Below are positions 4,671-49,665 of a stretch of 49,665 nt of DNA, piece by piece. The first letter of the stretch is position 1, and every line of letters begins with the position of its first letter. Location of the stretch: the sequence record OQ417974.1; one strand, 5' to 3'. The DNA comes from Mycobacterium phage prophiCCUG48898T-1. The notes under the pieces were generated by a model. That model was not told where the DNA came from and did no database searches. It was given only the letters and a program-made list of their open reading frames with translations. The translations under genes and the position numbers were made by a program.

Positions 4671-4672
4671 CC

Positions 4673-5014: not shown

Positions 5015-5041
5015 CCCAACCCACCCGAAGGAGTAACACCC

Positions 5042-5878: not shown

Positions 5879-5905
5879 CCCCACTAACCAAGTAGAGGAG
5901 ACCTG

Positions 5906-9609: not shown

Positions 9610-9617
9610 ATACGTGC

Positions 9618-10571: not shown

Positions 10572-10640
10572 TCCCGAACGGCCCGAAAACCCGCCAGCGA
10601 CGACCACAGCCCCAGGAATCGATATGCGAACGGAGACACG

Positions 10641-10928
10641 ATGACTCAGAAAACGGACCCCGAGCGGTTTACCTGCCCCGGGCTGGAAGAGGGCGACCGC
10701 GTGGCCATCCAGCTCGCCGACGGCACGCTGACCGAGGGCTACTGGTACGACGGCGCGGTACACGACCAGCCGCGCACGCTAGCGCGCCCACCCGCGCCTT
10801 GGCGGATCTGGCCGGTGAACCGCGAGTGGCGCATCGAGAAGCGGCTCACCGACGGGTACGAAACCTGGTGCCGATTCGACACCAGCGGCGAAGCCTTCGC
10901 TGCGTTCGCGGCCGGTGGTGCGCGATGA
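10641..10928 (+). CDS. Hypothetical protein (95 aa)
   Basis: ORF in the operon. Confidence 0.45.
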   Translation: MTQKTDPERFTCPGLEEGDRVAIQLADGTLTEGYWYDGAVHDQPRTLARPPAPWRIWPVNREWRIEKRLTDGYETWCRFDTSGEAFAAFAAGGAR

Positions 10929-11095
10929 GAGACCGCGACCTCGATGGGCGGGTGCTGAAAATCCGTCGCTGCCGACACAACCAGCGCCACTACCGCGACG
11001 AGTACGGAAACCGGCGCTGCCGCGACTGCGACGCCTTCGTGCGACCGGTAGCCGGTGCGGTGATGTGCGCACCACCCAAGAGGGACGGGCGATGA
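10925..11095 (+). CDS. Small Cys/Arg-rich hypothetical protein (56 aa)
   Basis: ATGA overlap with the upstream stop; CRHNQRHYRDEYGNRRCRDCDAF. Confidence 0.3.
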   Translation: MRDRDLDGRVLKIRRCRHNQRHYRDEYGNRRCRDCDAFVRPVAGAVMCAPPKRDGR

Positions 11096-11246
11096 GGCGC
11101 ACGCGCCCCGGCGACGCTGACCGGATAGATGAGCTCTGCTCCTAGGCTGGTAAGCCGTTGCAGCCCTGGCAAATTCAGTTCCTCACCAGGCTCGAACAGC
11201 ACGATATCGATGTCCAATTCGCCGAAATGGTAAGGGGATTCAACCG

Positions 11247-12491
11247 TTGACCAAGTGCAAGCGGTGCGAACGCGCAACCGATCTGTTCGTGTGCAAGGCC
11301 TGCATCGCGGAGCTGCGCAAGCGCCTGGCTGATCTGCCGTGGTGGATCGACCGACTCACCGAGACCGCTGTCGGGCAGGCGAACCTGGGCGACGGAGCAC
11401 GCAAGGGCGAGCGCCGCGACGTGTTGCACGGCGACGACACGCTCGTGAGCCACGTCGAGCCGTTCCCCCGTGACAAGGACACCACCCCGACCGCCAGGGA
11501 CCACCGGGACCGACACCAGGCGGCACTGTGGCATGCCCTGGCACTCGGCCGGGTCAACGGACGCGCCAGCGACGAGCTCGACCGAATCCACAACGCACTG
11601 TCGACGACCATCCGCGACATGTGCGAGACGCGCGGGCTGGAGGTGCCCGAGTTCCGCACCCGGCCAAGGCCTCTGCCGGTGGTCGTCGAATCGGGTGCAC
11701 GGCGGCCGGCAGATCGGTTCAGCCTCGATTCGGCACCGCCGGCCCGGGCGGGCTCGTGTCGACGGTGCTTCGTCACACTGCCCGCCTCGTCGGCCGGACC
11801 GCTGTGCGACGACTGCGACGGCGCCCCGGAGACGCGCACGGCCGACGACTCCCCCGCGGATGACCTACGCGTGACCTACGCCGGAAGGCGCGGCGACGAC
11901 ACGCACTCAGTCGCGACGACAGCGCGCATGGCCAAGTGGCTGCACCGGCATGCGGCCAATATCGCGCTGCAGGAGAACGGCGCCGAGATCTGCGACGAGA
12001 TCGAGCAGGTGTACCGGTCGATCACGCGCGTGGTGAACCGCCCACCCGAGCCCATGATCATCGGGCCGTGCATCACCGACCCGGCACCCGACGAAGTACT
12101 CGCCGAGCGGGGCCGCAAGGGCGACAACTCAACCCGGTGCGGGTACGCACTCATGGCGCCGAGCCACAGCGGCTCAATCGTGTGCCCGCAGTGCGACACC
12201 GCGCATTCGGTGGCCGACGTGCTGGCACGCAACCTCGGCGAGCTCGACGACCGCAACGCGACCGTGCGCGAGCTCGTCGACGTGATACTCCCCCGCCTCG
12301 ACGAGCACGTACCGCAGTCGACCATCGAGCGCTGGATTCGGCGCGGCTGGGTACCGGTACGCGGCCGGGACGCCCACGGGCACCAGATGGTTCGCATTGG
12401 CGATGTGCGCGCGGTGCGAGCAGAGCGGCCCAGGAACGCGCCAAGACGTGAACACACAGCAGACATGAGCTGTAGATCCAGCAACCTTTGA
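11247..12491 (+). CDS. Zinc-ribbon (N-terminal CxxC-x12-CxxC) protein with a C-terminal excisionase/AlpA-like HTH_17 motif; DNA-binding protein of unknown role. TTG start.
   Basis: N-terminal KCKRCERATDLFVCKAC. C-terminal STIERWIRRGWVPVRGRDAHGHQMVRIGDVRAV resembles MerR/excisionase-type HTH. Confidence 0.5.
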   Translation: MTKCKRCERATDLFVCKACIAELRKRLADLPWWIDRLTETAVGQANLGDGARKGERRDVLHGDDTLVSHVEPFPRDKDTTPTARDHRDRHQAALWHALALGRVNGRASDELDRIHNALSTTIRDMCETRGLEVPEFRTRPRPLPVVVESGARRPADRFSLDSAPPARAGSCRRCFVTLPASSAGPLCDDCDGAPETRTADDSPADDLRVTYAGRRGDDTHSVATTARMAKWLHRHAANIALQENGAEICDEIEQVYRSITRVVNRPPEPMIIGPCITDPAPDEVLAERGRKGDNSTRCGYALMAPSHSGSIVCPQCDTAHSVADVLARNLGELDDRNATVRELVDVILPRLDEHVPQSTIERWIRRGWVPVRGRDAHGHQMVRIGDVRAVRAERPRNAPRREHTADMSCRSSNL

Positions 12492-13579
12492 TGGGAGGCG
12501 CGAATCACCTTCACCGCATTCGCCAGCCATGTAACAATCGGTCAGTGATTGAGCTATGGGGAACCCGCTATGCTGCCGGAAATGGCATATCCAGAGCAAT
12601 GCGAATTCTATGCAAGGCAACCTTACTTCAATATGTTGTATTGCTCCTTTCCTTTGCTTTTATAATCTTTGACGACAAGAGCATCGGAATTCGGTACTCC
12701 GACATTGCAAGTGTGCTGTTCTTGGTATTCACAGTACTGTTGTATTTCTGTGGACTGTTGGCGGCAATCCTGGCAGGGCTCCTCGATGGCACTCAGAAGC
12801 AACGCCCCAAAAACTGGGAGCGGCAAAGCATATTGAAGCAGCTGCGAAATCCGACTTCCCCCGGATTTTTACTGTTTGTAGCTATGTCTCCCATCCTCCC
12901 AATGGTCGCAATAGTCGCGTCAGCGGGTATATACCGGCTATTAGATTTTCCTGCCGCAATTCTGAATGTTGCAACTCTGTTGGTCGCACTGGCTACTGGA
13001 TACGCGCACACCAAATTCTTCTATGGAGTGTCGGGCCATATGTCCAGAGAGGTGGCCAAAGGCAAGGATCTTTTTCGGGGATTCGACTGGTCTCTTGTCA
13101 ACACCAACGGTCGGAAGCGATTCCGCGATCGATACAGGAATGACTACTGGAAATACCCTGATGATGCGATCAGGGATGCCGAGGTTGATCTATATATTCA
13201 GCGTGCTCGGGCAATGCACTCCCTCGTTCTTATTCTGAACACTGTGACTTCCCTCTTGATTACATTTGTGATCGCAGACTTGTTCAAGAGGACGGTTGCT
13301 CAATGGGCACAGCCATCGACCGGGCAGAACATGCTCACCGCCGTAGCGATGACGACAGCGTTAGGCGTGTTGCTTCTGTTGTTCTTCGTGCCGTTGTACC
13401 TGCAGCGCAGGGCCAGCCTGTACGAGGACCTGCGGAAGGAATATGAGAAGTATCTGGAGAAGGGCGGCACTAGCTCTTCGAAGCGGCTCCCCGGAGTGCG
13501 TGTCGTCAACGGGCCCCGGCCATTCGCCCCTCGACACCCCAGGAGAACTCAACCGGCCAATGTCGGGCCTCCGGCGTAG
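12488..13579 (+). CDS. Polytopic membrane protein (about 6 TM) of unknown function on a markedly lower-GC segment; moron. Likelier start ATG 12599.
   Basis: TM segments LLQYVVLLLSFAFIIF, IASVLFLVFTVLLYFCGLLAAILAGLL, FLLFVAMSPILPMVAIVASAGIY, AAILNVATLLVALATGY, LVLILNTVTSLLITFVIADLF, LTAVAMTTALGVLLLLFFVPLYL. Local GC is about 48% against about 65% in the flanks. Confidence 0.7.
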   Translation: MMGGANHLHRIRQPCNNRSVIELWGTRYAAGNGISRAMRILCKATLLQYVVLLLSFAFIIFDDKSIGIRYSDIASVLFLVFTVLLYFCGLLAAILAGLLDGTQKQRPKNWERQSILKQLRNPTSPGFLLFVAMSPILPMVAIVASAGIYRLLDFPAAILNVATLLVALATGYAHTKFFYGVSGHMSREVAKGKDLFRGFDWSLVNTNGRKRFRDRYRNDYWKYPDDAIRDAEVDLYIQRARAMHSLVLILNTVTSLLITFVIADLFKRTVAQWAQPSTGQNMLTAVAMTTALGVLLLLFFVPLYLQRRASLYEDLRKEYEKYLEKGGTSSSKRLPGVRVVNGPRPFAPRHPRRTQPANVGPPA

Positions 13580-13653
13580 AACTTGCACATGGCACGCCCA
13601 CCGCGCGATCGGTTCCCCAACGCGGTCGTCGGCGACCTCGCGCCAAGCTGGAA

Positions 13654-14526
13654 TCAGGTTTCGCGGTACTTGTATCGCAGTGCACGCACCGCGCTGTGGG
13701 TTCGCCCCAAACGCTGGGCGGCCTCAATCACGGTCAGGTTGCGATCCAACGCGATCTCGATATCGCTGTCGGCCCAGGGTGCCTTGTAGTTGACCGCCGT
13801 GTGCCGGGTGGCCTCTTGACGTCGCTCCCGCTCTGCTTCGGCCGCGTCCCGGCACCGCGGACATAGGCATCCGTATCGACTCGCGCCGGTGTAGGTGCCG
13901 TGCAGATGCTCGGGAACCTTGCCCTGCAGGCGCCCCAACCAGCGCGCACGAGCCACAGTGACCGAGTTGATCGAACGCCCCAACTCGGCGGCAATCTCCG
14001 TGGGTGTGCGGGACTCATCGGCCAGGACAGCGATCTCATCCTCAGTCCAGAGGCGCTGCCGTATCGGCTCCGCTCGCGACTCGCGCGCCGGGATCAAACC
14101 CGAGGCCTTTTGGCGCTGCAGGTCTCGAATGTGCTTGATCGCCCTGAAGGAACGTCCCAACCGGCGGGCCGCTTCGGCGCGCGATATTGACCGGTCCAGT
14201 GCGATCGCGATCTCCTGTGGTGTCCATGACCCATAACAGGCGATGTCGGTCTCGGCTACCTGCTCTAGCTCGGCAGCGCGACCACGTTTCTGGGCGAGCA
14301 GTTGCTCAATATCGCGTCCCCGGTACCGCTTTCGAGCCTTCTCCACCTGTAGCCGGGTGCGGCCCAACCTCGCGCCGGCCTCGGCGCACGATAGTGACCG
14401 GTCCAGCGCCACTGCCAGCTCGTCAGCGGTCCACCGCCGCTGAGCTACACCATCAGCCACACATGACAGGCTACTTCTGCGTCTCCGTGCACACCGTGAA
14501 CCGGCGCACCGGGTGCGGAAAACCAC
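13654..14526 (-). CDS. DNA-binding protein with four tandem Myb/SANT-like (or sigma region-4-like) HTH repeats; alternative GTG start 14460, which avoids overlap with the upstream gene
   Basis: Four repeats of about 35 aa: W(T/A)xxE(I/L)xxALDRxLSxxEAAxRLGR(T/S)xxA(I/V)...R, for example WTADELAVALDRSLSCAEAGARLGRTRLQV and WTPQEIAIALDRSISRAEAARRLGRSFRAIKHIR. Confidence 0.65.
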   Translation of the reverse strand: MVFRTRCAGSRCARRRRSSLSCVADGVAQRRWTADELAVALDRSLSCAEAGARLGRTRLQVEKARKRYRGRDIEQLLAQKRGRAAELEQVAETDIACYGSWTPQEIAIALDRSISRAEAARRLGRSFRAIKHIRDLQRQKASGLIPARESRAEPIRQRLWTEDEIAVLADESRTPTEIAAELGRSINSVTVARARWLGRLQGKVPEHLHGTYTGASRYGCLCPRCRDAAEAERERRQEATRHTAVNYKAPWADSDIEIALDRNLTVIEAAQRLGRTHSAVRALRYKYRET

Positions 14527-15028
14527 CGGTCGGACAATCAGCGTTCGTCGTCGTGTTCAAGACAAGGTTCAGCGGCTTCTCACGTTTTGGCTTCGACGCG
14601 TCATCACAGGCCGCACGAACCGCTGTCACTTTCCCGATGCTCAGACAGTCGTTCGCGCTCCACGCGTAATCCAGACAAGCCGTGAACTCACCTTCATCTG
14701 GATACATATAGAACTTGTGATCCACATCTGCTGGGCACTCGGCAGGCGTCGGAACACGCTGAATCACCTTGTAACCGTTGGACGGCGAACCACAATCCAC
14801 CACCTTTAGCTTCGCCGCCGTACTAGGCCCATCCAAACTCACACACGCACCCACCGGCGCAATAGAAGCACCCGGTATCCCAGGCGCCTGCTCCGGAAAC
14901 TGGCCGGGGATTTGATCGAATGCTTGCTGCGGAGTGGCTCTAGGGGTCACGGCGGGCGAATCCGCCCCGTTGCATGCCGCGGTTGCAGCAGCTACAGCTA
15001 ATACCGCACAAACCAGCTTAATCGCCAC
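14471..15028 (-). CDS. Secreted Cys-rich lipoprotein-like protein (signal peptide with lipobox-like AATAAC)
   Basis: MAIKLVCAVLAVAAATAACNGADSP...; 10 Cys in the mature part; no recognisable enzymatic motif. Confidence 0.6.
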   Translation of the reverse strand: MAIKLVCAVLAVAAATAACNGADSPAVTPRATPQQAFDQIPGQFPEQAPGIPGASIAPVGACVSLDGPSTAAKLKVVDCGSPSNGYKVIQRVPTPAECPADVDHKFYMYPDEGEFTACLDYAWSANDCLSIGKVTAVRAACDDASKPKREKPLNLVLNTTTNADCPTGGFPHPVRRFTVCTETQK

Positions 15029-15236
15029 TATGTCCCGACCTGCCCAGCTTCCGGTACAGGTAGACCACGTACCCCAAACCGTAGATACCGACGACTCCCT
15101 CGGCGAGCACGAGATAAAGACCCGCCTGCGAAACTGCCCCGATGATCGATCCAGCTATCAAAAGAATAGACCCCACCGCTATTAAGGCGATCACAAGTCT
15201 CGGGTTCGACCTCATTGTTCTCATCCGCCCTTCCAA
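15018..15236 (-). CDS. Small two-TM membrane protein (72 aa)
   Basis: VIALIAVGSILLIAGSIIGAV and LYLVLAEGVVGIYGLGYVVYLY are hydrophobic helices. It overlaps the downstream gene by 11 nt. Confidence 0.45.
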   Translation of the reverse strand: MEGRMRTMRSNPRLVIALIAVGSILLIAGSIIGAVSQAGLYLVLAEGVVGIYGLGYVVYLYRKLGRSGHSGD

Positions 15237-15244
15237 TACGCCTA

Positions 15245-16339
15245 TTACCTATTCGCGCAATCGATTCCGTTTATCACAGCGCCAGTAGTGACGACTCCAC
15301 CACCGAGGATTGTCAGGCCCGTCGCCACCGCAGGCACCCCGATGGCCGCACCCGCCCCAGTCAACGATATTAGTCCCCCAGCCGCGACTAACAGACCACC
15401 CACAATTCCCATACCGATGTTCATCTTTTCACCGGTAGTGCACTGATTTTGTTCATGCTGCTGTTGTTCCAGCTGTTCAATCTTTTTGTCCTGCTCGGCG
15501 ATCTTCTCGTCTTTCGCCCTGTTGGCCTTTTCCAGATCCTCGATCCTCTGCTCAAGGCTAGGTTTCTCCGTAGTGTTCGGCGGGCAGGCACCGTCACACG
15601 GCGACGGCGTGGGTGTCGGGTCCAGCCAGGGATCGAACCAAGCAGGGCTACGGCCGCCGCCACCGGCCACAGTTCCGCCGACGCTCACCAACGCTGCGGC
15701 TGTGGTGTTGCCCATTTGCAGCATGGCGGCTTGGCACTTCTGCTGCTTCTGGTCAAGCTGCTGCGTGGTGTCGTCCTGCTTATTCTGCGGCTGCTGAGTC
15801 TGCGTCGGCGCCTGGCTCGGCTGCTGCTGTTGCGGCTGCTGGCCCTGTTGAGGCTGTTGTGGCGAATTCTGTTGCGGTGCCTGGTAATCCGGATTCGCTT
15901 TACCGGGACCCTGCGTGTACGGCGTGGCCGTCTGGTAGTCCGGGATCTGCGTGCCATGAGCGGGCTGTTGCGCCTGCTGCGGCTGCTGCCCGGCTTGCTG
16001 CCCTGGAACCTGTTGCGCGCCAGGCGATCCCGTGTTGTAGATTGAGATTCCAGAGTTCTGATCCATCGGCGGCTGATTGTTGCCGCCCTGGTAATCGGGC
16101 ATTGAGCTGGGCATTTGCGGCGGCTGGAACTGCTGGCCCCCGTCCATGCCCGGCCCGCCGGTAGGTCCGCCTGGCCCTGTTGGATCGGCGGCTACGGTCG
16201 CGACCGCCGAGAATCCGCTACCGGGAAGTGTGTGGTCATCGACAACCTTCGCTCCACCGACAGCCAAAGCGACAATTGCCACCAGCGCCGAGGCTCGCCG
16301 CAAACCCGCTGGCATCGTCCAACGCTCCTTCATGACCAT
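15245..16339 (-). CDS. Secreted Gln/Pro-rich low-complexity protein with a coiled-coil segment and a C-terminal glycine-zipper hydrophobic anchor
   Basis: Signal-like N-terminus MPAGLRRASALVAIVALAVGG. A long QQPQQ/PQ-rich region. EQRIEDLEKANRAKDEKIAEQDKKIEQLEQQQHEQ coiled coil. C-terminal GMGIVGGLLVAAGGLISLTGAGAAIGVPAVATGLTILGGGVV. Confidence 0.6.
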   Translation of the reverse strand: MVMKERWTMPAGLRRASALVAIVALAVGGAKVVDDHTLPGSGFSAVATVAADPTGPGGPTGGPGMDGGQQFQPPQMPSSMPDYQGGNNQPPMDQNSGISIYNTGSPGAQQVPGQQAGQQPQQAQQPAHGTQIPDYQTATPYTQGPGKANPDYQAPQQNSPQQPQQGQQPQQQQPSQAPTQTQQPQNKQDDTTQQLDQKQQKCQAAMLQMGNTTAAALVSVGGTVAGGGGRSPAWFDPWLDPTPTPSPCDGACPPNTTEKPSLEQRIEDLEKANRAKDEKIAEQDKKIEQLEQQQHEQNQCTTGEKMNIGMGIVGGLLVAAGGLISLTGAGAAIGVPAVATGLTILGGGVVTTGAVINGIDCANR

Positions 16340-16630
16340 GAATACAACCGCCCCTTTCAGCCGACGCTGACCGCGCCCCTGGGCAGATCATTACACACAG
16401 ATGGTTGCCATGTCGAGAAAACCCCAGCTATTGAGTTAGCCACTTCAGCACGGGCTTGCATCTCCGCTGGTAGACACAGCATGAAGACCCTCGCGCGGTA
16501 CCGCGATCTTGGAGCAACATCGACCATGGGACGCCACGTCTCGGTCGGTGGGTCGGCCCGTGTTCGCCAGATCTCCATCCTCTGGCCGCGAGCTGGCCGT
16601 CATGTCGGACTCTCGGCGTAGAACTGGCGA

Positions 16631-17050
16631 ATGGACGCCCGGAAGGCCATTCGTGAGGTCATCGAGAGCATCCCGAACCTATTCGGGATAACCCGAGGTG
16701 TGACCATCGGCGCCGAAGGCCAGACCGAGACCGTTCTCTACACGCAGGCGCAGGTCGCCGACATCATCGCCTCGATACTGCCCGACGCCCTCAAGACCAA
16801 GGGGCATGTGGTGATCGCACTACCCGAGGTCGAGACCTACGAGTCCGGCCGGCAATACGTGCGAGTATCCATCACCGCACAACCATGGTCTGACGGCGCC
16901 GTTCGCATCAGCCCGCACGGCGACCAGGTGGCCATCCGCAACGTGCCCGACAAGCTGCCCATGCAGGACGCGCCAGCGCTGGCCTCAGCACTCGTGGCCG
17001 CGTACACCCTGTGGCGTCGCGACACGCGAAAACCGATATCGCAGGTCTGA
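16631..17050 (+). CDS. Hypothetical protein (139 aa); first gene after the divergent 16340-16630 intergenic region
   Basis: ORF preceded by a 290-bp non-coding region. Confidence 0.5.
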   Translation: MDARKAIREVIESIPNLFGITRGVTIGAEGQTETVLYTQAQVADIIASILPDALKTKGHVVIALPEVETYESGRQYVRVSITAQPWSDGAVRISPHGDQVAIRNVPDKLPMQDAPALASALVAAYTLWRRDTRKPISQV

Positions 17051-17110
17051 CCTGCACGTATGGCAAAATGAGTCTCAACATGTCGGTGGGACAACTATGT
17101 CCATCGCATG

Positions 17111-17135
17111 AAAACCCCGGCCTAGCTGGGGTTTT
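17111..17135 (+). terminator. Hairpin aaaacccc-ggcctagct-ggggtttt followed by cgtcgtttc; candidate intrinsic terminator
   Basis: 8-bp stem with a T-containing tail. It lies in the 145-bp gap before gene 17196. Confidence 0.45.
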
Positions 17136-17195
17136 CGTCGTTTCAGGGGCGATGTCCATTCCGCCCAATCTCATCCCTTAGCCCGAGGGGGACTC

Positions 17196-17528
17196 ATGAA
17201 GCGCACCATTGCCCGTTGGTATCGCCGCCTTCTGCGCCGCGACAGCTGGACGCCGTTCGACTCGAACGGAAACCTGCGCCCCGAGTTGTTCACTCGCGAG
17301 GGGTGGCAGACGGTTGGGGCGCTCACGGACGAAGCCCGGCGGGACGCGGCGCGCCATAGGTTCGCGGCCGCAGGCAGAGACGCAGGCAAGCTGTTCGCCA
17401 AGTCTTGGCACTCAAAGACCCTTGACGGAATCGCGGGTGCCACGCCGACGATGCCCAACGCGGCGGTATGGGTGCGCGTGCACAAGGCAACGTGGTGGCG
17501 ACGACTACTTCGCAGATTTGGCCGCTGA
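17196..17528 (+). CDS. Basic hypothetical protein (110 aa)
   Basis: Strong RBS GAGGGGGA 6 nt upstream of the ATG. Confidence 0.5.
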   Translation: MKRTIARWYRRLLRRDSWTPFDSNGNLRPELFTREGWQTVGALTDEARRDAARHRFAAAGRDAGKLFAKSWHSKTLDGIAGATPTMPNAAVWVRVHKATWWRRLLRRFGR

Positions 17529-17929
17529 TGGCCAATCAGCTCTTGGTGGATCTGCTCACCCGCACGTTCGCAGCTGGCGCACTACCACATCCCGGCGATG
17601 AGAAGTCGGGCCCGCGGACGATCCCAATTCCCGGCTTCCGCTCCACCGGTATGCCAGAGGCTCAAGCACAGGAAATGATCGGCCAGGCCGCAAAGCTGTG
17701 GGCCGAGGCCCTTGAGTCGGTCATCGATAGCGAATTCGACGTACTCACGAAAGCCGATGCGGCACAGCTGCGCCAGGACGCCGCAGAAGCGCCGGACGGC
17801 ACCCGAATCGTCACGCTGTACGACCGCACCGACCACCAGCGCGCCACACCCTTGTTGGTGCTGACGGTCGGCAAGACCGACGACGTGACGATCGATGCCC
17901 GCCAACTACGAAAGTTCCTAGCCCAATGA
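17527..17929 (+). CDS. Hypothetical protein (start TGATG, overlapping the upstream stop)
   Basis: MANQLLVDLLTRTF...; coupled ORF. Confidence 0.45.
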
Positions 17930-18261
17930 GCAATATCAAGATCACCGTCGACGGCAAGGTACTGATGGACACCGACCCGGGTAAGTGGCATTCCACGCCG
18001 CCGGATATCCCCGACCTCAAGCGCCAATCCGGCGGGCAGGGTTGGGGTCTGGCCGCGATGGTCACTCTCGCGCAGGCGGGCACGCTGGCCGAGCTGGGCC
18101 AGCCCATTGGGGATACCACGATGACCATCACTACCCGCGCCAACGGCTGGACGCTGGATGTGGAGCAGGACGGCAGCGAGCCATCTGTCGCACCCGTCAA
18201 GGTCGCACCCGCTCCTACGGCACCGCCAGCGCACGCTGAGGCCGAGCCGGTGCGATCGTGA
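17926..18261 (+). CDS. Hypothetical protein (111 aa)
   Basis: ATGA overlap. Confidence 0.5.
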   Translation: MSNIKITVDGKVLMDTDPGKWHSTPPDIPDLKRQSGGQGWGLAAMVTLAQAGTLAELGQPIGDTTMTITTRANGWTLDVEQDGSEPSVAPVKVAPAPTAPPAHAEAEPVRS

Positions 18262-18764
18262 GTCCAGCAACGCCCGCAGAGTTCCGGGAGAACGGACGCA
18301 AGCCGTTCCGGGTCACCAGCCGGGGCCGCGTGTACGTCGGTGATGATGAATTTCCTTACCCAATCCGCAAGGGCAGCATCCGAGTTGAGAAGGCCAGTCC
18401 CTCACACAACGCGGTGATTATGACGATCCTGGTCGGCCCCGTCTCCATCGAAGCGAAGTCACCCGAAGCACGGACCATCGTTGTCGCCGAAACCATCCCG
18501 GCCGCAATCAAGCTCGCCAAGTCGCTCGACCTCGACCTGTTTCTGGCGGCCTCCCCGCCGTCCATCCGTAGCGGAGCCTTGCGCGGAATCGCGAACGTCT
18601 CGGCCATCTACATCGACGGTGCCGTACGCAGCAGGGACACCGACGAGCAGACTGCCCTGCTGGCCAGCCTCTCTGGCGCTCCCCTCCACCGGGTCGAGCG
18701 CCAGGGGTTTTCGTCGGATGTGCTGATCATGGATGAGCCCTATGTCGCCGAGGCCCGGCCGTAA
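18258..18764 (+). CDS. Hypothetical protein (168 aa)
   Basis: GTGA overlap. Confidence 0.5.
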   Translation: MSPATPAEFRENGRKPFRVTSRGRVYVGDDEFPYPIRKGSIRVEKASPSHNAVIMTILVGPVSIEAKSPEARTIVVAETIPAAIKLAKSLDLDLFLAASPPSIRSGALRGIANVSAIYIDGAVRSRDTDEQTALLASLSGAPLHRVERQGFSSDVLIMDEPYVAEARP

Positions 18765-27807: not shown

Positions 27808-28887
27808 ATGACGCAACCCGAAACCGGCGCTGACTGGAGCGTCGGCGGATTCACCGACACCGATAGCCGTTTCGCTATCCGAGGCCCGCTCGTTGCCGTA
27901 TTAGCGCGCGACTATCGCGGCGCGGCCACTGATATCAGCCCGCATCTCTTCAACCCGCTGGCCAAGGATGGCAAGCTGCGCGCGGACCTGTTCGCCCGCC
28001 GCAAGGTCGGCGGGTACTGGGTCAACAACCCCGAGCCCAACCAGGGGTGGCTGTTCCTCGGCGCCAACACCAAGACTGGCGGCCCCGAGCGTGAGCCGAA
28101 CATTGATGTCAGCCCGCTGGAGATCTTGCAGTCGAATTACCCGATCGAGAAGGACATCACCAAGATCGAAAAGACGGTGAAGTTCACCCCGATCGAGACC
28201 TTGAACCCTGTCGTCAAGGCCCTGCGCAATAACGTTCCGCTGCAGGATGAGGACGGCAACCTGCTCGTGGCAGAACCGGGCCAAGGCGACTATTTCGTGG
28301 GCACCCCGCTGGAAGCCGATTTCGTTCCCCGCCAGCTGCTTTTGGTGCGCGCACGGTCCCGGGCCGGCGGCAAGCTGTACACCGTCGAACCCATCCCCCT
28401 GTGCAAGCTGACCAAGATCGGCGCGGCCAAGATGGACACGGAAGACGCCGACGCCAACGAGCTGGAGTTCTCGCTCGAACCTGACCCGTTCTTCCTGATC
28501 CCCGATCCGCGCAACCCGGGCATCCTGATTCCCGGCCTGGACGGCGAATGGGTCGGCGGCAAGGGCTGGACCACGATTCAGGGCGCCCCCAAGGTGTCGA
28601 ACACCCCGCCGACGGTCACCCCCGGTGCCGCCGGTAAGGCCTCGATCGTATTCGCCGACCCCACGGGCGCTGGCGATCCGTTCACCTTCGCCGCCGAAAG
28701 CACCGTCGATGACGGGACCACCTGGCTGCCCGCCGAGCTCGATGGGCCCGCGGTCTCGTCCGGTGGCAACACCACGGTCAAGGTCAAGACGGTGGCAGCC
28801 GGTGCAACCAAGTTCCGCGTGAAGGTGACCGGCACCAACGGCGCTTCGGTCTACACCCCGAAGTCTGCCGCCGCGACCATCGCCTGA
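27808..28887 (+). CDS. Major tail protein with a C-terminal Ig-like domain
   Basis: 359 aa, upstream of the chaperone/tape-measure genes. The C-terminal NTTVKVKTVAAGATKFRVKVTGTNG resembles Big/FN3-type Ig-like domains of major tail proteins. Confidence 0.6.
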   Translation: MTQPETGADWSVGGFTDTDSRFAIRGPLVAVLARDYRGAATDISPHLFNPLAKDGKLRADLFARRKVGGYWVNNPEPNQGWLFLGANTKTGGPEREPNIDVSPLEILQSNYPIEKDITKIEKTVKFTPIETLNPVVKALRNNVPLQDEDGNLLVAEPGQGDYFVGTPLEADFVPRQLLLVRARSRAGGKLYTVEPIPLCKLTKIGAAKMDTEDADANELEFSLEPDPFFLIPDPRNPGILIPGLDGEWVGGKGWTTIQGAPKVSNTPPTVTPGAAGKASIVFADPTGAGDPFTFAAESTVDDGTTWLPAELDGPAVSSGGNTTVKVKTVAAGATKFRVKVTGTNGASVYTPKSAAATIA

Positions 28888-28986
28888 TGAACCCTCACCT
28901 GGCGGGCGTCGGGCTGCGCCCGCCAGGTGAGCCCCACCCCCATTCCAGCCCGAAACCCCAAGCCCACCAGCCCGAAAGGAACAATC

Positions 28987-29433
28987 ATGAGCTCCGAAGA
29001 CACCAAGGACGTTCTACACCCCGTCGACCCCAGAAAGGCACGCGAGCAGGCCGCCGATCACCTCGGATTCATGGCAGGTGTGCCCTTTGATCTCGGCGAC
29101 GGCGAGATGTGGGAGCTTCCCAACCCGGCGTTTCTCGATACCGAGCAGCGCAAGCGGTACCGCGACTACCAGCGGGACATGAAAGCCCTCGACAAGGAAA
29201 CCGTCGATCATCCTTTCATCGACGGCAAGACCATCGAGCAGAACGTCTATCCGTATCTCAAGGACGGCAAGGATTACGACCCTGACGAGCAGCTGTGCAT
29301 CGCACTCATGGGTGAGGACATCTACGCCAAGTTCCTCGCCGCGGGCGGTGTTCCCGGCCAGATCGATACGCACTGGAAGGTGATGCAGCGCCAGCTGGAG
29401 GAGCGGACAAAGATCGACTCCAAAAGTAATTGA
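28987..29433 (+). CDS. Tail assembly chaperone (G-like); start ATG 28987 with RBS AAAGGAA
   Basis: Position upstream of the tape measure, with an overlapping downstream extension ORF. Confidence 0.6.
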   Translation: MSSEDTKDVLHPVDPRKAREQAADHLGFMAGVPFDLGDGEMWELPNPAFLDTEQRKRYRDYQRDMKALDKETVDHPFIDGKTIEQNVYPYLKDGKDYDPDEQLCIALMGEDIYAKFLAAGGVPGQIDTHWKVMQRQLEERTKIDSKSN

Positions 29434-29857
29434 GGCAGTAGCGCTGTGGTGCCGTTGGCCCAATGCGATCGAGGCTGATCTTCGTTTTCGCGGTGTGCGC
29501 ATCGCTGATTGGCACCAGGGCACCCGCGATGAGCGCGGCGCCCTGGTGCTTTCCAGCCGCCAACTACTGTCGCTGATCCACCAGCTGCCCGAAGACTCAG
29601 AGTTCAAAACCCATGCGCCGCCGCCGTTTGGGCGCGACGGCGACTGGACGGTCATGCAGAAGATTGCCGCTGAGACACACAACGAGCTCGCGGCATACCG
29701 GGCCAGCCAGTACGCGGGCACCCCGCACGAATACATGTACACCAAGTACTCATCGCCGCTGGATTCTCGCAGACAGCACGAACTTGACTCCGCTGAAAAC
29801 GAATTCATCGAGTCGGCGCGAGAAGAGTTGCTAGATGACGTGTTTGGCGACCAATGA
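29384..29857 (+). CDS. Tail assembly chaperone frameshift extension (T-like); open in the +1 frame relative to G from 29384
   Basis: The +1 frame is open over 29384-29857. The -1 frame stops at 29427. Candidate shift site CC-AAA-AGU at 29420-29427. Confidence 0.55.
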   Translation, partial: CSASWRSGQRSTPKVIEAVALWCRWPNAIEADLRFRGVRIADWHQGTRDERGALVLSSRQLLSLIHQLPEDSEFKTHAPPPFGRDGDWTVMQKIAAETHNELAAYRASQYAGTPHEYMYTKYSSPLDSRRQHELDSAENEFIESAREELLDDVFGDQ

Positions 29858-29871
29858 TCAGGAGGTGAACC

Positions 29872-32800
29872 ATGTCCGTGCAGATACCCATCGGTGCCGC
29901 CGCTGATCATCGGTCGTGGAAGCGGGTCGCCGATGACGCCACCCGCACGTTCGGCAACGCGGGTAAGGATGCCGGCCGCGATTTCGCCAACGCGCTGGCG
30001 GGTAGCTCCAAGGATGTCGAGAAGTCCCTTAAGCGCATGGGCGACAGGGCTTCTGATGCCTACGACAAGGCAGCATCGGCCGTCGGGAAACTCAAGTCTG
30101 AGGAATCCGAACTACAGCGGCTACGCGACCGCGACGCCGACGGCGCACGGATCATCCGCCAGACCGAGAAAGTCAACGACGCGCGGCGCGCCGAGGCTCG
30201 TGCTGTCCGGGACGCAACGCGGGCATACCGCGAGTATCAAGAAGCTGCCGACGAGGCGAGCCGACGCAACAACACCAACCTTGTTGACGGCATGCGCGCC
30301 CAGGCTGGCCAGGCCGCCCAGCTCGGCCGCGACATGGGCAATGGGTTCTCAGGCGGATTCACCCACGGGGTGAGCAGCGCGGCCTCGATCGCCCGACTCG
30401 GCACCGCTGGCGGGCCAATCGGCGCGGCCCTGTTGGGTTTGACCGCCGTAGGCATCCTCGTCGGAAGTCGGCTCTCCAACGCCATTGCCGAAGGTATGGC
30501 CACCACGGCCACCACCAAGTTGTTCCAGGGCCGCATGGGTCTGGATGACACCTCGATGGGCAATTACGCCAAGGCTGCCGGTCAGTCCTACGCCAACAAC
30601 TTCGGCGCCTCTGTAGCGGACAACCTCAGCGTCGCTCAAGCGGCCCTGCGCAACAACCTGATCAAGCCCAACTCGCCCGATGACGAAATTCAGTACACGA
30701 TTCAGCAGCTCCAAGGTGTGGCGCAGGTCGTCGAGAAGACCCCGCAAGAGCTCGCGCACTCCGCGACCCAACTCATGCGGACCGGCCTTGCCAATAGCGT
30801 CACCGAAGCGCTCGACATCATCACCGCGGGCTCACAGAAGGGCCTGGACGTAACCGGCGACTGGCTCGACTCTATCGGCGAGTACTCCACGCAATTCCGC
30901 AAGCTCGGCCTGACCGGCAGCGAGACAATGACGCTGCTCAAGCAAGGCATCGAGGGCGGTGCCCGCGACACCGACAAGGTGGCCGACTCCCTCAAGGAAT
31001 TCAGCATCCGCGCGGTCGACGGCAGCAAGTCGACCAAGGAAGGTTTCGAGGCGCTGGGGTTCAACGCCGACGAGATGGGACGGCGCTTCTCCGCAGGCGG
31101 CGAGCAAGCACACCAAGCATTTGCAGCGGTGCTCACCGGGCTACGCAATCTAGATGACCCGGTTCAGCAAGCCCTTGTGTGGCAACGCCTTTTCGGCACG
31201 CAGTGGGAGGACATGGGCGATGCTGTCAACAAACTCGACCTCGACCCGGCTAAAAACCAGTTCAAGGATCTGCAAGACACCTCGCAGCGATCGACTAAGA
31301 CCGCGACGGAGACGTTCAAGTCCGAATGGGAAAGCGCAACCAAGACGGTCGATCAGTGGTTCACCGACCTGAAGACCAGTATCTCGGATTGGTTTGTGGA
31401 TCTGCCTGTCATCAGGGACATCCCGACGATGATCAAGGATCTGTTCAGTTCCTCGCCGCCACCGCCGCAATACGCTGCACCGCTCGGCGGTACGCATCCC
31501 GGTACCGACATCCTGGCCAACACCCTTCCCGGTGCGCCGGGCGCGGGCTCAACCGTCCTGCCTCCGGCGCCCGGCGACAACTCAGCACGGACACTGCTCG
31601 GCAGCGCGCTCGCCCCCGGGACCGCCCTGCCCCCGCCGGATGCCCAGCGCGGCAATGCTGTCGATAACGGTCCGCAGGCAGGCGACAGGAAGCCGATCGC
31701 GCCGGCCGGGGACGACGACAAGACCAAGGCCCCGATCGATCCGAGTCTTTGGTCGGTGGAGTCAAAGCCCGTTGCCATGCCGCCAGGATTGGCCACGGCG
31801 CCCACCGCAGCGCCCGGGGTGCTCGTTTCGTCTCCCAAGGGCGGGCCCGGTCTCGGTCGCTACGAGGTCGACCCCATGCGGGTGTATGACGCTGAGTCGT
31901 CGGCGATCCGGGCCAAGAACTCTCTGGAGCAAGACCGCATTGCGTTGATCCGGCTGGAGCAGCAGGGTAACGCCGATCAGGACGCACTACTGCGAGCGCG
32001 CAACCAGGTTGCCGACGCCGAACGCTCGTACGTTTCGGCGCAGATGAAACTGGCTGAGGCGCAGCAAGGTACGTGGAAGAAGCTGGAGAGCTCTACGCAG
32101 GGCCTCGCCGACGGCATGGGCCAGATCGGTGCCGCACTAGACAAGGATTTCGGGATCTCCAAGGGCCTGCCGGGGCTGGCCGAGAATCTGACCAAGTTCC
32201 TGGCCAATATGGCGGCGGCCCCGATCCTTGGCCAGCTCGGCGCGGTCAGCCAACTCAACCCGTCCAAGGGCGGATACGGCGCTATGGGCATCCTGGCCGC
32301 CCAGGGCGTGTTTGGGCCGCAGTACACAGGTGTTGCCCAGGACGTTGCCATGGCGGGCATCGGGCCGATGGCGCTGCAACAGGGTGTAAATCCCAACCTC
32401 GCCGCGATGTATGCATTGGCCGCGCGTGGCGGAAAGTACGCTCCGGCATCTGATCTGCAGAACGGGCTGGCCGACTGCTCGGGTGCCGTCTCGGATTTGG
32501 TGGAGGTGCTGCGCGACGGGAAGTCCTCACCGGCACGGCTGTTCGATACCACTGCGTTCGCCACCGATGCCAGCGCTGCCAAGCTCGGTTTCCTGCCCGG
32601 ATATCAGCCGGGGGCCTTCAATGTCGGTGTGAATCCCCTGCCGGGGCAGCAGGGCCACATGGCCGCGACGCTGCCCAACGGCATGAATTTCGAATCTGGT
32701 GGAGGACACGGCCCGATGCTGGGAGGCTCGGCGGCCGGTGCCCTCGATAAGCAGTTCCCCAAGCAGTACTACATGCCCCTTGGTTCGGGCACGTCGAGCG

Positions 32801-33498
32801 CACCGTCGCCGCAGCCGATCGGGCCCACGGTCGATTATCGGGCGCTCTACCCCAAGACGGCCGGTCCTGGCTTAGCGGTCACCGATCCGGTGATGAGCGA
32901 TCCGACGTTGACCAATCCTGCCCTGACAGCGGGTATTCCGGCCGCTGGCGGCGGGTGGGGTGGGGCTACCGGGCCTGCGCAGGCGTGGAGCCCGTCATCG
33001 ACGCGCATTGGTGGTGTGGAACCGGCGACCGGTTCGGGTGCGGGCGGGGTCGGTATCACTCCCGGCGGCACCATCGATACCGCGATCGGGATGGCCGCCT
33101 CGGCGGCCGACATCTTCGCCCCAGGTGCCGGGCAGGCAGCGCAGACCGGAATCAAGCTGGCCAACAGGGCGATTCAGTTCGGTGCACAGGCCGCAGGTAT
33201 CGGGGTGCAGGGCTTGATGGATACGGTGCTGCCGACCGCGGGCTCGGAGCTGGCCAACAAGAGCTGGCTGACCAAGATCCTCGGTGGTGTCGCTGGTGCT
33301 GCCCCGGCGATCCCGAACGTGGCCGGCAAGGCGACCGCGCCACCGAACCCGAATCAGGGCGACCCGAACGCCCAAGGCGGCCCAGTCAAGGCGGGCGACA
33401 CAAACATCCACGTCACCAACAACCGCGCCACCGAGGACGGCACCGGCCGCGATATCGCATTCCATCAGCAAGCCCGCAACTCCGGGCCGGGGATGTGA
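29872..33498 (+). CDS. Tape measure protein (1208 aa)
   Basis: Size and position; N-terminal coiled-coil regions; embedded DCSG...H motif. Confidence 0.85.
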   Translation: MSVQIPIGAAADHRSWKRVADDATRTFGNAGKDAGRDFANALAGSSKDVEKSLKRMGDRASDAYDKAASAVGKLKSEESELQRLRDRDADGARIIRQTEKVNDARRAEARAVRDATRAYREYQEAADEASRRNNTNLVDGMRAQAGQAAQLGRDMGNGFSGGFTHGVSSAASIARLGTAGGPIGAALLGLTAVGILVGSRLSNAIAEGMATTATTKLFQGRMGLDDTSMGNYAKAAGQSYANNFGASVADNLSVAQAALRNNLIKPNSPDDEIQYTIQQLQGVAQVVEKTPQELAHSATQLMRTGLANSVTEALDIITAGSQKGLDVTGDWLDSIGEYSTQFRKLGLTGSETMTLLKQGIEGGARDTDKVADSLKEFSIRAVDGSKSTKEGFEALGFNADEMGRRFSAGGEQAHQAFAAVLTGLRNLDDPVQQALVWQRLFGTQWEDMGDAVNKLDLDPAKNQFKDLQDTSQRSTKTATETFKSEWESATKTVDQWFTDLKTSISDWFVDLPVIRDIPTMIKDLFSSSPPPPQYAAPLGGTHPGTDILANTLPGAPGAGSTVLPPAPGDNSARTLLGSALAPGTALPPPDAQRGNAVDNGPQAGDRKPIAPAGDDDKTKAPIDPSLWSVESKPVAMPPGLATAPTAAPGVLVSSPKGGPGLGRYEVDPMRVYDAESSAIRAKNSLEQDRIALIRLEQQGNADQDALLRARNQVADAERSYVSAQMKLAEAQQGTWKKLESSTQGLADGMGQIGAALDKDFGISKGLPGLAENLTKFLANMAAAPILGQLGAVSQLNPSKGGYGAMGILAAQGVFGPQYTGVAQDVAMAGIGPMALQQGVNPNLAAMYALAARGGKYAPASDLQNGLADCSGAVSDLVEVLRDGKSSPARLFDTTAFATDASAAKLGFLPGYQPGAFNVGVNPLPGQQGHMAATLPNGMNFESGGGHGPMLGGSAAGALDKQFPKQYYMPLGSGTSSAPSPQPIGPTVDYRALYPKTAGPGLAVTDPVMSDPTLTNPALTAGIPAAGGGWGGATGPAQAWSPSSTRIGGVEPATGSGAGGVGITPGGTIDTAIGMAASAADIFAPGAGQAAQTGIKLANRAIQFGAQAAGIGVQGLMDTVLPTAGSELANKSWLTKILGGVAGAAPAIPNVAGKATAPPNPNQGDPNAQGGPVKAGDTNIHVTNNRATEDGTGRDIAFHQQARNSGPGM

Positions 33499-45342: not shown

Positions 45343-45416
45343 GGACGGCAGATTACAAGATCACGCCCAGGTCAGAAGTGGTTACAGGAGTGCTCACATC
45401 GCGGCGGGCATGCCCC

Positions 45417-45917
45417 CTACCCGGCGTCGGCGAATTCGGGTTGCTCGCGCAAGTGCCAGCCCGGCGCAACGTCCAGGTGGTTGTAGTAGTGCTGGAACAG
45501 CTCGATAGCTTCAGCGGCGGATAGGACCTCTGACGGTCGTACCAGGTACTCACTGTCGCCGTTGTAGACCGTCTCTGACTGCTCGGATTCATTTGCCGCA
45601 GAAGGCCGTCCGATGGTGTACATACGCCGAACGCCATCGGACTCTTTCCGGCGGATTTCGACGGTCAGGCGCTCGGCGGTGGCCCCGCAAGTCTGAATCC
45701 ACTCATGAGGGTATGGGAACTCGTCGTACTCAGTGCCATCGGGGACCTTATAGATCGAGAACGCCACGTCTGCGACACCATCCCGATCTTCGCCGATCGA
45801 GTTGATATTTATTTCGATCTGCCGGTGCGCCTTCCCTGGCTCAGCGCCCATCCACATAATGAAATCTTTGTCGGTAGTGTATGTATGCATCTGAAAACCA
45901 TTGCGCTCAAGACTCAT
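45417..45917 (-). CDS. Candidate immunity protein for the upstream toxin
   Basis: Its ATG overlaps the toxin stop (ATGA). 166-aa cytoplasmic acidic protein. Confidence 0.5.
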   Translation of the reverse strand: MSLERNGFQMHTYTTDKDFIMWMGAEPGKAHRQIEININSIGEDRDGVADVAFSIYKVPDGTEYDEFPYPHEWIQTCGATAERLTVEIRRKESDGVRRMYTIGRPSAANESEQSETVYNGDSEYLVRPSEVLSAAEAIELFQHYYNHLDVAPGWHLREQPEFADAG

Positions 45918-47566
45918 TCGCCCGCCACCTTAATTACCTCTACCTCAGTGACTTTCACCGTCTCGACTTCCCCGCTCCTGTTTGTGATCGTAACGTAGGC
46001 CGGATTCTCTGGAGTTACGGCCGAGTCGAACGCTCGCTGCTCTGCATTGCGTGTGGCATCACCGGATTTGACCTCAATACCTTTGTAAGTGCCGTCTGAC
46101 TTCTGCGCCAAACCATCGTAGTAGCGGCCATTCTCGACCCCATCGACCTTGGCCTTACGACGCTCAGTGCTCACCCATTCGTCCGGGTTAGCGCGCCGAT
46201 AACGATCGATACCCTCTGCCTCTGGTTGGCGACCGTATCCTCGGGCTGTGCCGCCTCGGCCTGTGAATGTGCCGATGGAATCGCGGTCGTCGCCACGGTT
46301 GATGCCCTCGCCGGGTCGTCCAGTCCGGGCCTCCATCACCGTCACGCCGTTGACCGCAGCCTCTTTCGAGAGGTCGAGGGCTGGCGGTATGGCGACGACC
46401 GCGCCACCAGCGAGTAAGCCCGCCCCGGCAACAGCGACAGGCGCCGCGACCGGTGTCGCGGCCCCACCGGTGAAGACCTCACCGACGCCCGCCGCAGCCA
46501 TCATGTCGTAGCCGACCGCCATCATGCCGACTCCAGCTGCCATCTGGATTGTCTGGCCGGGGTTGTCGATCATGGCCTGCCCCAAGGATGCAGTGGCGTT
46601 CACTACCGGGGCCACGGTGTTGTATATCTCGTTTCCGAAAAGCTCAACCTGCATCTGTACCAACGACTTTAGGGTGTCGATGACCATCGATGCGCCCTGG
46701 ATGATCGGCGCCAGCAGCAGCGCGAGCGACTGCACTTCCGACTTGAACTGGTTGACGATGTTGCGGATGTCGGCGGCGATTTTCTTTATTTCGTCGTCGT
46801 CTTCGCCGGTAATCCAGTCCACGACCTGTTTGGCACCGGTCAGCGGATTTACCAAGCGGGCCAACAGGTCCAGTATCGATGCGTGCGCCGTATCGATCTT
46901 GGCCGCGTAGTCGTTGAGCTTGGTGCCCATGGTGCTGCACATGCCGCCGACCTCGCCGACAGCACCGTCAATCGTCTTGAACGCGCTATCGATCTTGGGA
47001 CCTTCGGGGATCTGCTGGGCCTGCGCGGTTGCCTGCGCCCCCGCTAGTCCGGCCTGCTGAGCGGTGAATGCCGCACCGGCAGCCGTCCACGCGGCGCCAG
47101 CGGCGCGCAGCTTCGCCGAATCACCATTGGGCCAAATCATTCCGATGAACGGCTCCACCAGGAACCAACCGGGTGGGTCGCCAACATCGCTACCCACCGC
47201 AGACGGTGGGGTCCCGGCCTTCACCGCGGGAGTGGGTGAGGCGGCGGGCAGTGGGTCGCCGCCCTTGCCGTCGATGTTGGATGCCACCTCGGCACGCGAA
47301 TAGTTGGTCGCCGAGGCCCGGATGCCGTCAGCGGCCCGCCCGGCACCGTTGGACACGTCCACCATCGCCTCAAGGAGTTCCTTGGCTGACGAGTCATACG
47401 ATCGCGCGAACACGATCCCGGCGGGGTCATCCCCACCCATACCGGCCGAACTCGACAGCGCCGACTGCAATGCCGACAGCGCAGAGCCCCACCCGCCCAC
47501 CGAGCTGGAGACCGTTCTACCGGCGCCATCGAGGGCAACCGGGTCGACATGAATCGGGGGTGCCAT
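45914..47566 (-). CDS. Polymorphic toxin. N-terminal WXG100-like ESX/T7SS secretion domain (GGWGS and YSRAE), Gly/Ala-rich hydrophobic linker, C-terminal PD-(D/E)xK-like domain. Start ATG 47566; the track extension to 47725 is spurious.
   Basis: N-terminal DGAGRTVSSSVGGWGSALSALQ...SATNYSRAEVAS matches WxG and YxxxE. C-terminal YYDGL...GIEVKSGD...RNAEQRAFD matches D...ExK...Q. It sits directly downstream of an Esx-like pair. Confidence 0.65.
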   Translation of the reverse strand: MAPPIHVDPVALDGAGRTVSSSVGGWGSALSALQSALSSSAGMGGDDPAGIVFARSYDSSAKELLEAMVDVSNGAGRAADGIRASATNYSRAEVASNIDGKGGDPLPAASPTPAVKAGTPPSAVGSDVGDPPGWFLVEPFIGMIWPNGDSAKLRAAGAAWTAAGAAFTAQQAGLAGAQATAQAQQIPEGPKIDSAFKTIDGAVGEVGGMCSTMGTKLNDYAAKIDTAHASILDLLARLVNPLTGAKQVVDWITGEDDDEIKKIAADIRNIVNQFKSEVQSLALLLAPIIQGASMVIDTLKSLVQMQVELFGNEIYNTVAPVVNATASLGQAMIDNPGQTIQMAAGVGMMAVGYDMMAAAGVGEVFTGGAATPVAAPVAVAGAGLLAGGAVVAIPPALDLSKEAAVNGVTVMEARTGRPGEGINRGDDRDSIGTFTGRGGTARGYGRQPEAEGIDRYRRANPDEWVSTERRKAKVDGVENGRYYDGLAQKSDGTYKGIEVKSGDATRNAEQRAFDSAVTPENPAYVTITNRSGEVETVKVTEVEVIKVAGE

Positions 47567-47570
47567 CGCG

Positions 47571-47861
47571 CTATGCCCAGTTCTGCATGTTCTTGGCAGC
47601 GGCGCCTGTGTAATTGCCGTGCGCGGCGTGGCTCGCGCTACGTAGGCCCTTGAGCGCTTCGCGCATCTGCTCGGCGCCCTTGGCCCACTTCTCGTGCGCC
47701 TGCGTGTGGGCCGTGGCAGCTTCACCTGTGAAGGTGGCGTGCAGGTTGTGAACCTCGGTGTCCATGGCCGCTATCGACGCCTCGGCTCGCTGCTCAACCT
47801 CTGCCATGCGTTCGATGATCCGCATGAGCTCGTCGGGCACAACGCCGAATTCACCTGACAT
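47571..47861 (-). CDS. Esx-like small helical protein (WXG100-family partner, EsxB-like)
   Basis: 96 aa, MSGEFGVVPDELMRIIERMAEVEQRAEASIAAMDTEVHNLHATFTGEAATAHTQAHEKWAKGAEQM. Its stop lies 4 nt upstream of the toxin start. Confidence 0.55.
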   Translation of the reverse strand: MSGEFGVVPDELMRIIERMAEVEQRAEASIAAMDTEVHNLHATFTGEAATAHTQAHEKWAKGAEQMREALKGLRSASHAAHGNYTGAAAKNMQNWA

Positions 47862-47870
47862 CTTCTCCCC

Positions 47871-48182
47871 CTACATTCCGTCAGCGGCGTTGACGTTGGC
47901 GGCGGTGGCCGCATCCTGGCCCACGAACGCATCCCCGGTGCTCGCCAACAAGCTGCCCATCTGCGCAAGGCCCTGGTGTACCAGCTTGGCGCCCTCGTAC
48001 CACTGGAACCACCGCGTGGTGAACGCGCTCGCCGACCCACCAGACCAACCGGAGCCGACAAACCGCGACACCTCGGCGTCGAGGGCATCCAGCTCCGTCG
48101 CCAAACCGCCTGCGGTCGCGGTGACCAATCGCGAAACCCGCTGCAACTCTTCTGGCGAAACCCCGAGGACCCCTCCACTCAT
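47871..48182 (-). CDS. WXG100 protein (EsxA/ESAT-6-like); start ATG 48182
   Basis: MSGGVLGVSPEELQRVSRLV...FVGSGWSGGSASAFTTRWFQW; W-S-G in the central turn; about 100 aa. Confidence 0.65.
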   Translation of the reverse strand: MSGGVLGVSPEELQRVSRLVTATAGGLATELDALDAEVSRFVGSGWSGGSASAFTTRWFQWYEGAKLVHQGLAQMGSLLASTGDAFVGQDAATAANVNAADGM

Positions 48183-48279
48183 TGCCGGATGGTATCGCCG
48201 CCGAGTTTGCCACCGCAATAGGAGTGCGAAGCGATACCCATCCGACCTGCACGTTTCGGCGGCATGCGCAGGGTTATTG

Positions 48280-49527: not shown

Positions 49528-49647
49528 AAGTACAGCCCGTCCTTTTGCTAGGAAACCGAACGGGTGGACTTGTTGCAGGTCAGTTGCTTCCCCGAGCGGA
49601 AACCGTGACCTGAGCTGGCGCGCCGGAACGCGGACTTATACGGTTCA

Positions 49648-49665
49648 TACTCGTGAGTAAGAACT
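49648..49665. repeat. Right copy of 18-bp direct repeat (candidate attR core); about 120 bp upstream of the integrase start codon
   Basis: Exact match to 1-18. The repeat may be longer, but the window ends here. Confidence 0.75.

Follow-up and report, generated by a model that had tools for sequence, protein, structure and literature searches.

In the prophage genome prophiCCUG48898T-1 (Mycobacterium phage; record OQ417974.1), of which the whole analysed stretch of 49,665 nucleotides is referred to here as the window, two overlapping genes encode the tail assembly chaperones G and GT, and the longer product, GT, is very probably made by a +1 ribosomal shift on AAA_A. The slip site is contained in the cassette GAC-UCC-AAA-AGU (29416..29427, + strand), which was located by its conservation among relatives and as the sole re-pairing site in the narrowed region. 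A frameshift in the chaperone genes is already known, routinely annotated and ordinary for this phage group, as is evident from joined CDSs in phiGD57-1 and its relatives and from published descriptions; indeed, the AAA-AGU arrangement with +1 geometry is common in mycobacteriophages, namely in clusters F, J, N and O, in phage HC, and in MabA2 and MabC. The original prediction had regarded a +1 shift as the unusual variant, and this is right for G/T shifts in general, among which +1 is a minority, but not within the mycobacteriophages.

The window represents a Mycobacterium abscessus prophage of cluster MabC; the assignment of the near-identical and related M. abscessus prophages to this cluster has been published (PMC8092301). 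In nucleotide comparisons, the 1-kb region around the frameshift site was 100% identical to those of prophiGD43A-3 and prophiGD33-1 and 80-99% identical to those of 12 further M. abscessus prophages. When the whole window was compared, the identity of ~99% with prophiGD43A-3 was confined to 18699-45382, and the window is therefore a close relative of prophiGD43A-3 but not the same prophage. The early genes (1-18698) are mosaic with respect to prophiGD43A-3, matching in gapped blocks of 93-97% identity, and the last 4.3 kb (45383-49665) gave no blastn match in the first 50 kb of prophiGD43A-3. prophiGD43A-3 carries a polymorphic toxin/immunity/WXG cassette and the integrase there, and the right end of the window may have a different cargo. 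No tRNA genes were found in the window.

G and T, which like their two neighbours are on the + strand, are sited between the major tail protein gene (27808..28887, an ORF so annotated in prophiGD43A-3 and phiGD57-1) and the tape measure protein gene (29872..33498, recognised as an ORF and from annotation), which has the strong Shine-Dalgarno (SD) sequence AGGAGG upstream. The short chaperone G (28987..29433; 148 amino acids) runs from ATG at 28987, preceded by an SD-like GAAAGGA, to TGA at 29431-29433 and ends in ...KIDSKSN. The frame of T is +1 relative to G; after TGA at 29381-29383, no stop codon interrupts it from 29384 until that at 29855-29857, and both frames are open together for the 47 nt from 29384 to 29430, which is the only place for a shift. 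The site reads UCC (29419) AAA (29422) AGU (29425) AAU UGA in the 0 frame and CCA (29420) AAA (29423) GUA (29426) AUU GAG in the +1 frame, while the -1 frame is closed by TAA at 29427-29429 and by more stop codons further downstream. The frames had been described in just this way beforehand, with the +1 frame open from 29384 to 29857, the -1 frame closed at 29427 and both codon readings present in the overlap, and these coordinates proved exact. The fusion GT thus corresponds to 28987-29424 joined to 29426-29857 and has 289 amino acids, and the T extension proper (29426..29857) consists of 143 codons and a stop codon.

The proteins themselves identify the pair. The translation of G matched the PHROG profiles phrog_621 (E 1e-43) and phrog_978 (E 8e-27), the latter being built from fused tail assembly chaperones and 288 positions long. 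G through K146 occupies positions 7-156 of phrog_978 and T from the Val encoded at 29426 occupies positions 157-280, and the junction between K146 and Val is therefore exactly contiguous on the profile. A fusion with the junction DSK/V gave a single uninterrupted match of 226.4 bits (E 1e-66), a score that is not an independent measurement because the profile mirrors the join chosen by annotators. A Pfam search of the chaperone returned zero matches. The PHROG matches and the location of the pair, with the major tail protein gene on one side and the tape measure gene on the other, agree with the description of the pair as tail assembly chaperones in the original prediction. As a separate observation, the sole full-length match to the GT fusion was P0001, a 276-amino-acid "tail assembly chaperone, partial" attributed to the eukaryote Aduncisulcus paluster with 67% identity, which is without ~50 residues around the frameshift site (...AAGGVP/VRIADWHQ...); the protein search yielded no fusion protein from a phage GenBank record. 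Because the junction region is removed, P0001 is uninformative on the junction; it is probably derived from a contaminant contig (mycobacterial prophage), in which a eukaryote-style gene model has removed the stretch around the frameshift as if it were an intron.

We then compared the site with homologous regions from phiGD57-1, HC, prophiGD02-2 (MabA2), Mutaforma13 (F), Vorrps (O), Rebel (N), Minerva (J) and four prophages or MAGs from GTDB genomes; related loci in GTDB and IMG/VR were sought with a 3-sequence alignment. In all of the sampled relatives, T is in the +1 frame and the site reads GA[CT]-[TC]C[CG]-AAA-AGT. When 11 independent lineages were compared without gaps from -36 to +48 nt, AAAAGT was the sole run of six invariant bases, and this invariance is above chance because the proteins of the 11 lineages are only about 30-50% identical. 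The conserved residues are those of the G frame 5' of AAAAGT (R140 and D144) and those of the +1 frame 3' of it (A, W, P, I and DL), and the 0-frame tail after AGT is unconserved, with 1 to 17 codons among the lineages. The +1 frame opens as near as 11 nt upstream of AAA (in prophiGD02-2) and the 0-frame stop codon comes as near as two codons after AGT (in the window and HC), which leaves about six codons around the motif for the shift. Furthermore, the synonymous positions in the flanks are saturated, R140 being encoded by CGG, CGT, CGA or CGC and the Val after the shift by GTA, GTG, GTT or GTC, yet the Lys of the motif is always AAA and the next base is always A across the lineages; selection therefore acts on the nucleotide sequence and not only on the protein. 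AAAAGT is both conserved and slip-prone, and it lies within the overlap.

The same pattern extends to environmental sequences. In IMG/VR, GAY-YCN-AAA-AGU occurs at the homologous codon with the +1 geometry in 21 of the 23 distinct contexts (60 loci). The two exceptional contexts are a locus with a -1 heptamer, L072, to which we return below, and a pair of loci that have lost the G part, L061 and L062. The latter two are on contigs of ~7.7 kb, where a T-domain ORF (protein P0002; ...ANLWPLWCRYPDQIESDL...) is preceded by a sequence that is not G-like and the AAA-AGU cassette is missing; they are probably a rearranged or decayed prophage fragment.

Among the known phages, homologous G and T with ~30-50% identity are present in cluster F1 (Tweety gp12/13, Karhdo and Mutaforma13 gp12/13) and also in cluster N (Rebel), cluster O (Vorrps; the Corndog group), cluster J (Minerva; the Omega group) and HC. 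These chaperones have the site GAC-TCG/CCC-AAA-AGT, the +1 geometry and the DSK/V junction as in the window, but their 0-frame tail is longer (up to 17 codons versus one in the window) and their +1 Val codon is usually GUG instead of GUA. The joined CDSs annotated in four of the relatives span 937 nt (Mutaforma13), 952 nt (Vorrps), 907 nt (Rebel) and 796 nt (Minerva), all of them 1 modulo 3; as feature tables give outer coordinates, the direction of the join was taken from the span modulo 3 and the PHROG profile. Closest to the window is the MabC phage phiGD57-1 (MW314852), the genes 13/14 of which have ~90% nucleotide identity and an identical GAC-TCC-AAA-AGT-AAT-TGA. For its gene 14, the annotation gives a tail assembly chaperone CDS joined from two pieces, the 946-nt span of which corresponds to +1 or -2.

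In the mechanism that we propose, most ribosomes would translate G and stop at UGA 29431, and a minority would enter the +1 frame at UCC-AAA-AGU. While peptidyl-tRNA-Lys is paired with AAA (29422-29424) in the P site and the A site presents AGU, a codon of rare use, the tRNA-Lys would move one base downstream on the A4 run and pair again at 29423-29425. Val-tRNA would then read GUA (29426-29428), and translation would continue to 29857. The resulting GT would contain the junction ...KIDSK/VIEAVALW..., corresponding to a predicted junction peptide RTKIDSKVIE or DSKVIEAVALWCRWPNAIEA. AAA_A (29422-25) is the only site in the narrowed region of about six codons at which re-pairing in the P site is possible, and the re-pairing of tRNA-Lys one base downstream, which had been anticipated, is perfect; the frames and the conservation likewise support the +1 (or -2) geometry and the slip site put forward in the original prediction. 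If the pair behaves like gpG/gpGT of lambda, G and GT would be needed in a fixed ratio during tail assembly, acting as chaperones of the tape measure protein and bringing in the major tail protein.

The codon usage of the phage is compatible with this mechanism. According to codon counts from the CDSs of the near-identical record prophiGD43A-3 (15,880 codons), AAA is used 6.4 times per 1000 codons and constitutes 17% of the Lys codons, and AGT is used 2.6 times per 1000, constitutes 4.9% of the Ser codons and is the fifth rarest sense codon; the rarity claimed for both codons is thereby confirmed. The in-frame pair AAA-AGT occurs once in the 15,880 codons. There are twenty other in-frame AAA_A sites within phage genes, and the A4 run alone is therefore insufficient for shifting. 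AGU is read by the same tRNA-Ser(GCU) as the common AGC, and its action as a "hungry codon" is therefore putative, a strong pause being not guaranteed. GUA, which occupies the A site in the +1 frame, is also uncommon (5.1 per 1000), but the 0-frame A-site codon AGT is rarer than GTA, as judged by usage only. For the forward shifts annotated in SEA-PHAGES genomes, PRFect uses a motif of four identical bases and a rarer 0-frame A-site codon (PMC10885494), and UCC-AAA-AGU fits this "four" motif rule.

We found no stimulatory RNA structure downstream or upstream of the site (z of +0.98 and -1.67 downstream and -0.71 upstream), and a search for Rfam elements gave only a chance-level match (mir-138 at E 0.87). 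An SD-like GGAGGAG is present at 29397-29403, 18 nt upstream of the AAA slip codon, where it coincides with conserved E-E-R codons; similarly, runs like AGGAG or GGAGC are found in several relatives, likewise on conserved E-R codons, and the spacing exceeds that of known SD-stimulated shifts. A prfB-like SD stimulator was hence rejected, the sole SD-like run being at the wrong spacing. In the literature searched, we found no experimental junction peptide for the window phage or any relative and no experiment settling +1 versus -2, and a full-text search for a frameshift at "AAA AGU" also found nothing.

The frame geometry is equally compatible with a -2 shift at or next to AAA-AGU, which would give ...DSKKV... 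or ...DSKSV.... A chaperone shift of that kind is documented in phage Mu, at GG GGG CGA (PMC3458567), and the arrangement in Tweety of cluster F1 was called a -2 frameshift in 2007 (PMC2884959); AAAAGT in the examined F-cluster sequence is at the distance given in that paper. Nonetheless, tRNA-Lys would have to move from AAA to CCA or CGA, or tRNA-Ser(GCU) from AGU to AAA, with two mismatches in each case, and the base two positions upstream varies among UCC, UCG and CCC, which is not what would be expected of a conserved landing codon. Also, the two -2 products scored 220.4 bits (DSKKV) and 219.3 bits (DSKSV) on phrog_978, i.e., 6-7 bits below the +1 fusion, on a profile that itself reflects a chosen join. 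A tandem -2 slip of the Mu type (GG_GGG_CGA) was rejected, since the site does not allow re-pairing two bases upstream. Current SEA-PHAGES annotation, in which only -1 or +1 joins are made (PMC10885494), uses +1 (PMC10793310, PMC10885494), and the frameshift of the cluster F1 chaperones was reported as +1 in 2023 (PMC10793310). We thus consider a -2 shift very unlikely and regard +1 slippage of tRNA-Lys in the P site as the probable event.

T might also be made without any frameshift from its own GTG at 29495, and the GenBank annotation of 12 of 14 near relatives indeed has two separate genes. This GTG exists, and the ORF beginning there (29495..29857), called a "hypothetical protein" in prophiGD43A-3, is the 3' part of the T extension. 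However, the T frame has no earlier start codon, with no ATG, GTG or TTG from 29384 to 29494, and no SD was found ahead of this GTG (ctgatcttcgttttcgcggt GTG). When the predicted fusions of eight phages (29-88% identity to the window protein) were aligned, A150, W154, P158, I161, D164 and L165 were invariant, all of which are encoded upstream of GTG 29495; protein homology reaches across clusters into the 23 codons upstream of this GTG. In tblastn searches with the T frame against 682 phage records and the GTDB and IMG/VR loci, the matches start with the Lys of the motif or directly beside it, and in every relative the motif marks the exact beginning of the homology. Furthermore, the relatives have no conserved start codon, and the fused model covers phrog_978 end to end in one stretch. 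Since the T frame lacks a start before 29495 and residues upstream of it are conserved across clusters, T is reached by a frameshift from G; independent initiation at 29495 is highly improbable and, judged from the sequences, the separate gene 29495..29857 is an annotation artefact.

Were RNA polymerase to slip on the A4 run, so that a fraction of the mRNAs lost one A or gained two and were then translated to GT, the product would be identical to that of the +1 ribosomal shift, and the conserved element is indeed a homopolymer run. The runs known to be prone to such slippage nonetheless have about 6-9 or more identical bases, in comparison with which four A would be too short, and the strict keeping of exactly four A and the following GU in all lineages would better fit a translational signal; transcriptional slippage is hardly credible here. 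A canonical -1 shift (X_XXY_YYZ with a structure) was rejected, as its frame meets stop codons at 29427 and after and there is neither a heptamer nor a significant downstream structure.

The +1 shift of tRNA-Lys on AAA_A can be compared with several other systems. The gpG/gpGT pair of lambda was reportedly the subject of Xu, Hendrix and Duda in 2004; the yield of GT in lambda is a few percent, with which a low, unstimulated shift efficiency in the window phage would be consistent. In lambda, too, the genes for the major tail and tape measure proteins flank the pair (PMC2884959, PMC8785237), and the two products share a common N-terminus, the longer one arising from a programmed shift shortly before the short ORF ends; unlike the window, however, the lambda shift is -1 on G_GGA_AAG, and similarity at the sequence level is undetectable (no Pfam match). 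In cluster E, Kostya gp20/21 has a homologous T domain with the shift at the homologous codon, but the site (L010, 1199-1213) is a classical -1 heptamer, C_CCA_AAC, instead of the AAA-AGU of the window. The -1 fusion of Kostya, DPN/LLEAV, aligns gap-free with DSK/VIEAV of the +1 fusions. The exceptional IMG/VR locus L072 (about 1480-1505) likewise has a -1 heptamer, C_CCA_AAA, at the homologous codon. Because the junctions align gap-free and the motifs differ, the position of the shift is conserved whereas its direction and the slippery motif have been exchanged.

Forward recoding with a slowly decoded 0-frame A-site codon is familiar from yeast Ty1 (CUU-AGG-C) and Ty3 (GCG-AGU-U) and from E. 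coli prfB (CUU-UGA-C), and in Ty1 and prfB the P-site tRNA can re-pair at +1. AAA_A in the window resembles Ty1 and prfB in allowing this P-site re-pairing at +1, and the site resembles Ty3 in that the putative pause codon is AGU and the +1 codon is for Val (GUU in Ty3 and GUN in the window and its relatives). In contrast to prfB and Ty3, the window has no SD-like stimulator at the prfB spacing, and no downstream context like that of Ty3 was found. The organisms and tRNA pools of Ty1, Ty3 and prfB also differ from those of the window, and pausing at AGU in mycobacteria is putative.

With regard to annotation, the MabC records are inconsistent (MW584182, MW584148 and others as against MW314852). 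T is given as a "hypothetical protein" or as a separate, unjoined chaperone in 12 of the 14 MabC records, and a joined CDS is present only in phiGD57-1. Also, the start of G differs among the records, being either ATG (window 28987) or, as in phiGD57-1, an upstream GTG (window 28927). The latter GTG sits within the 3' arm of a perfect 16-bp GC-rich hairpin at 28894-28931 (dG -35.6 kcal/mol; z -5.0), which comes directly after the stop codon of the major tail protein gene and ahead of G and has no obvious U tract. Hairpins of comparable strength are found at the corresponding position in phiGD57-1, HC, prophiGD02-2, Mutaforma13, Rebel and Kostya. Possible roles of the hairpin are those of a terminator, of an attenuator or of an element that stabilises the mRNA and so sets the ratio of the major tail protein to the chaperones.

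In practical terms, our analysis leads to a correction of the annotation in most MabC records, and it concerns a shift for which the published labels conflict, the F1-type chaperone shift having been -2 in 2007 and +1 in 2023. The AAA-AGU site offers a clean case, with wide conservation, of forward frameshifting in a bacterial virus, and forward sites have been characterised less well than those for -1. That homologous chaperones shift in opposite directions at one codon, +1 at AAA-AGU and -1 at CCCAAAC or CCCAAAA, makes for a neat comparative system. Known biology is extended here and not overturned. As a tentative and joint reading, to which we give somewhat less than even weight, GAY-YCN-AAA-AGU could be a dedicated bacterial +1 cassette, in which AGU and the +1 Val codon (as in Ty3) are mechanistically needed and not merely tolerated, which has been kept at one codon position in F, J, N and O, HC, MabA2 and MabC, and the position of which has been converted to the -1 heptamer C_CCA_AAN in cluster E and L072. 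If this were true, the tail assembly chaperones of these phages would provide a natural system for comparing +1 and -1 answers to the same problem of fixed-ratio expression.
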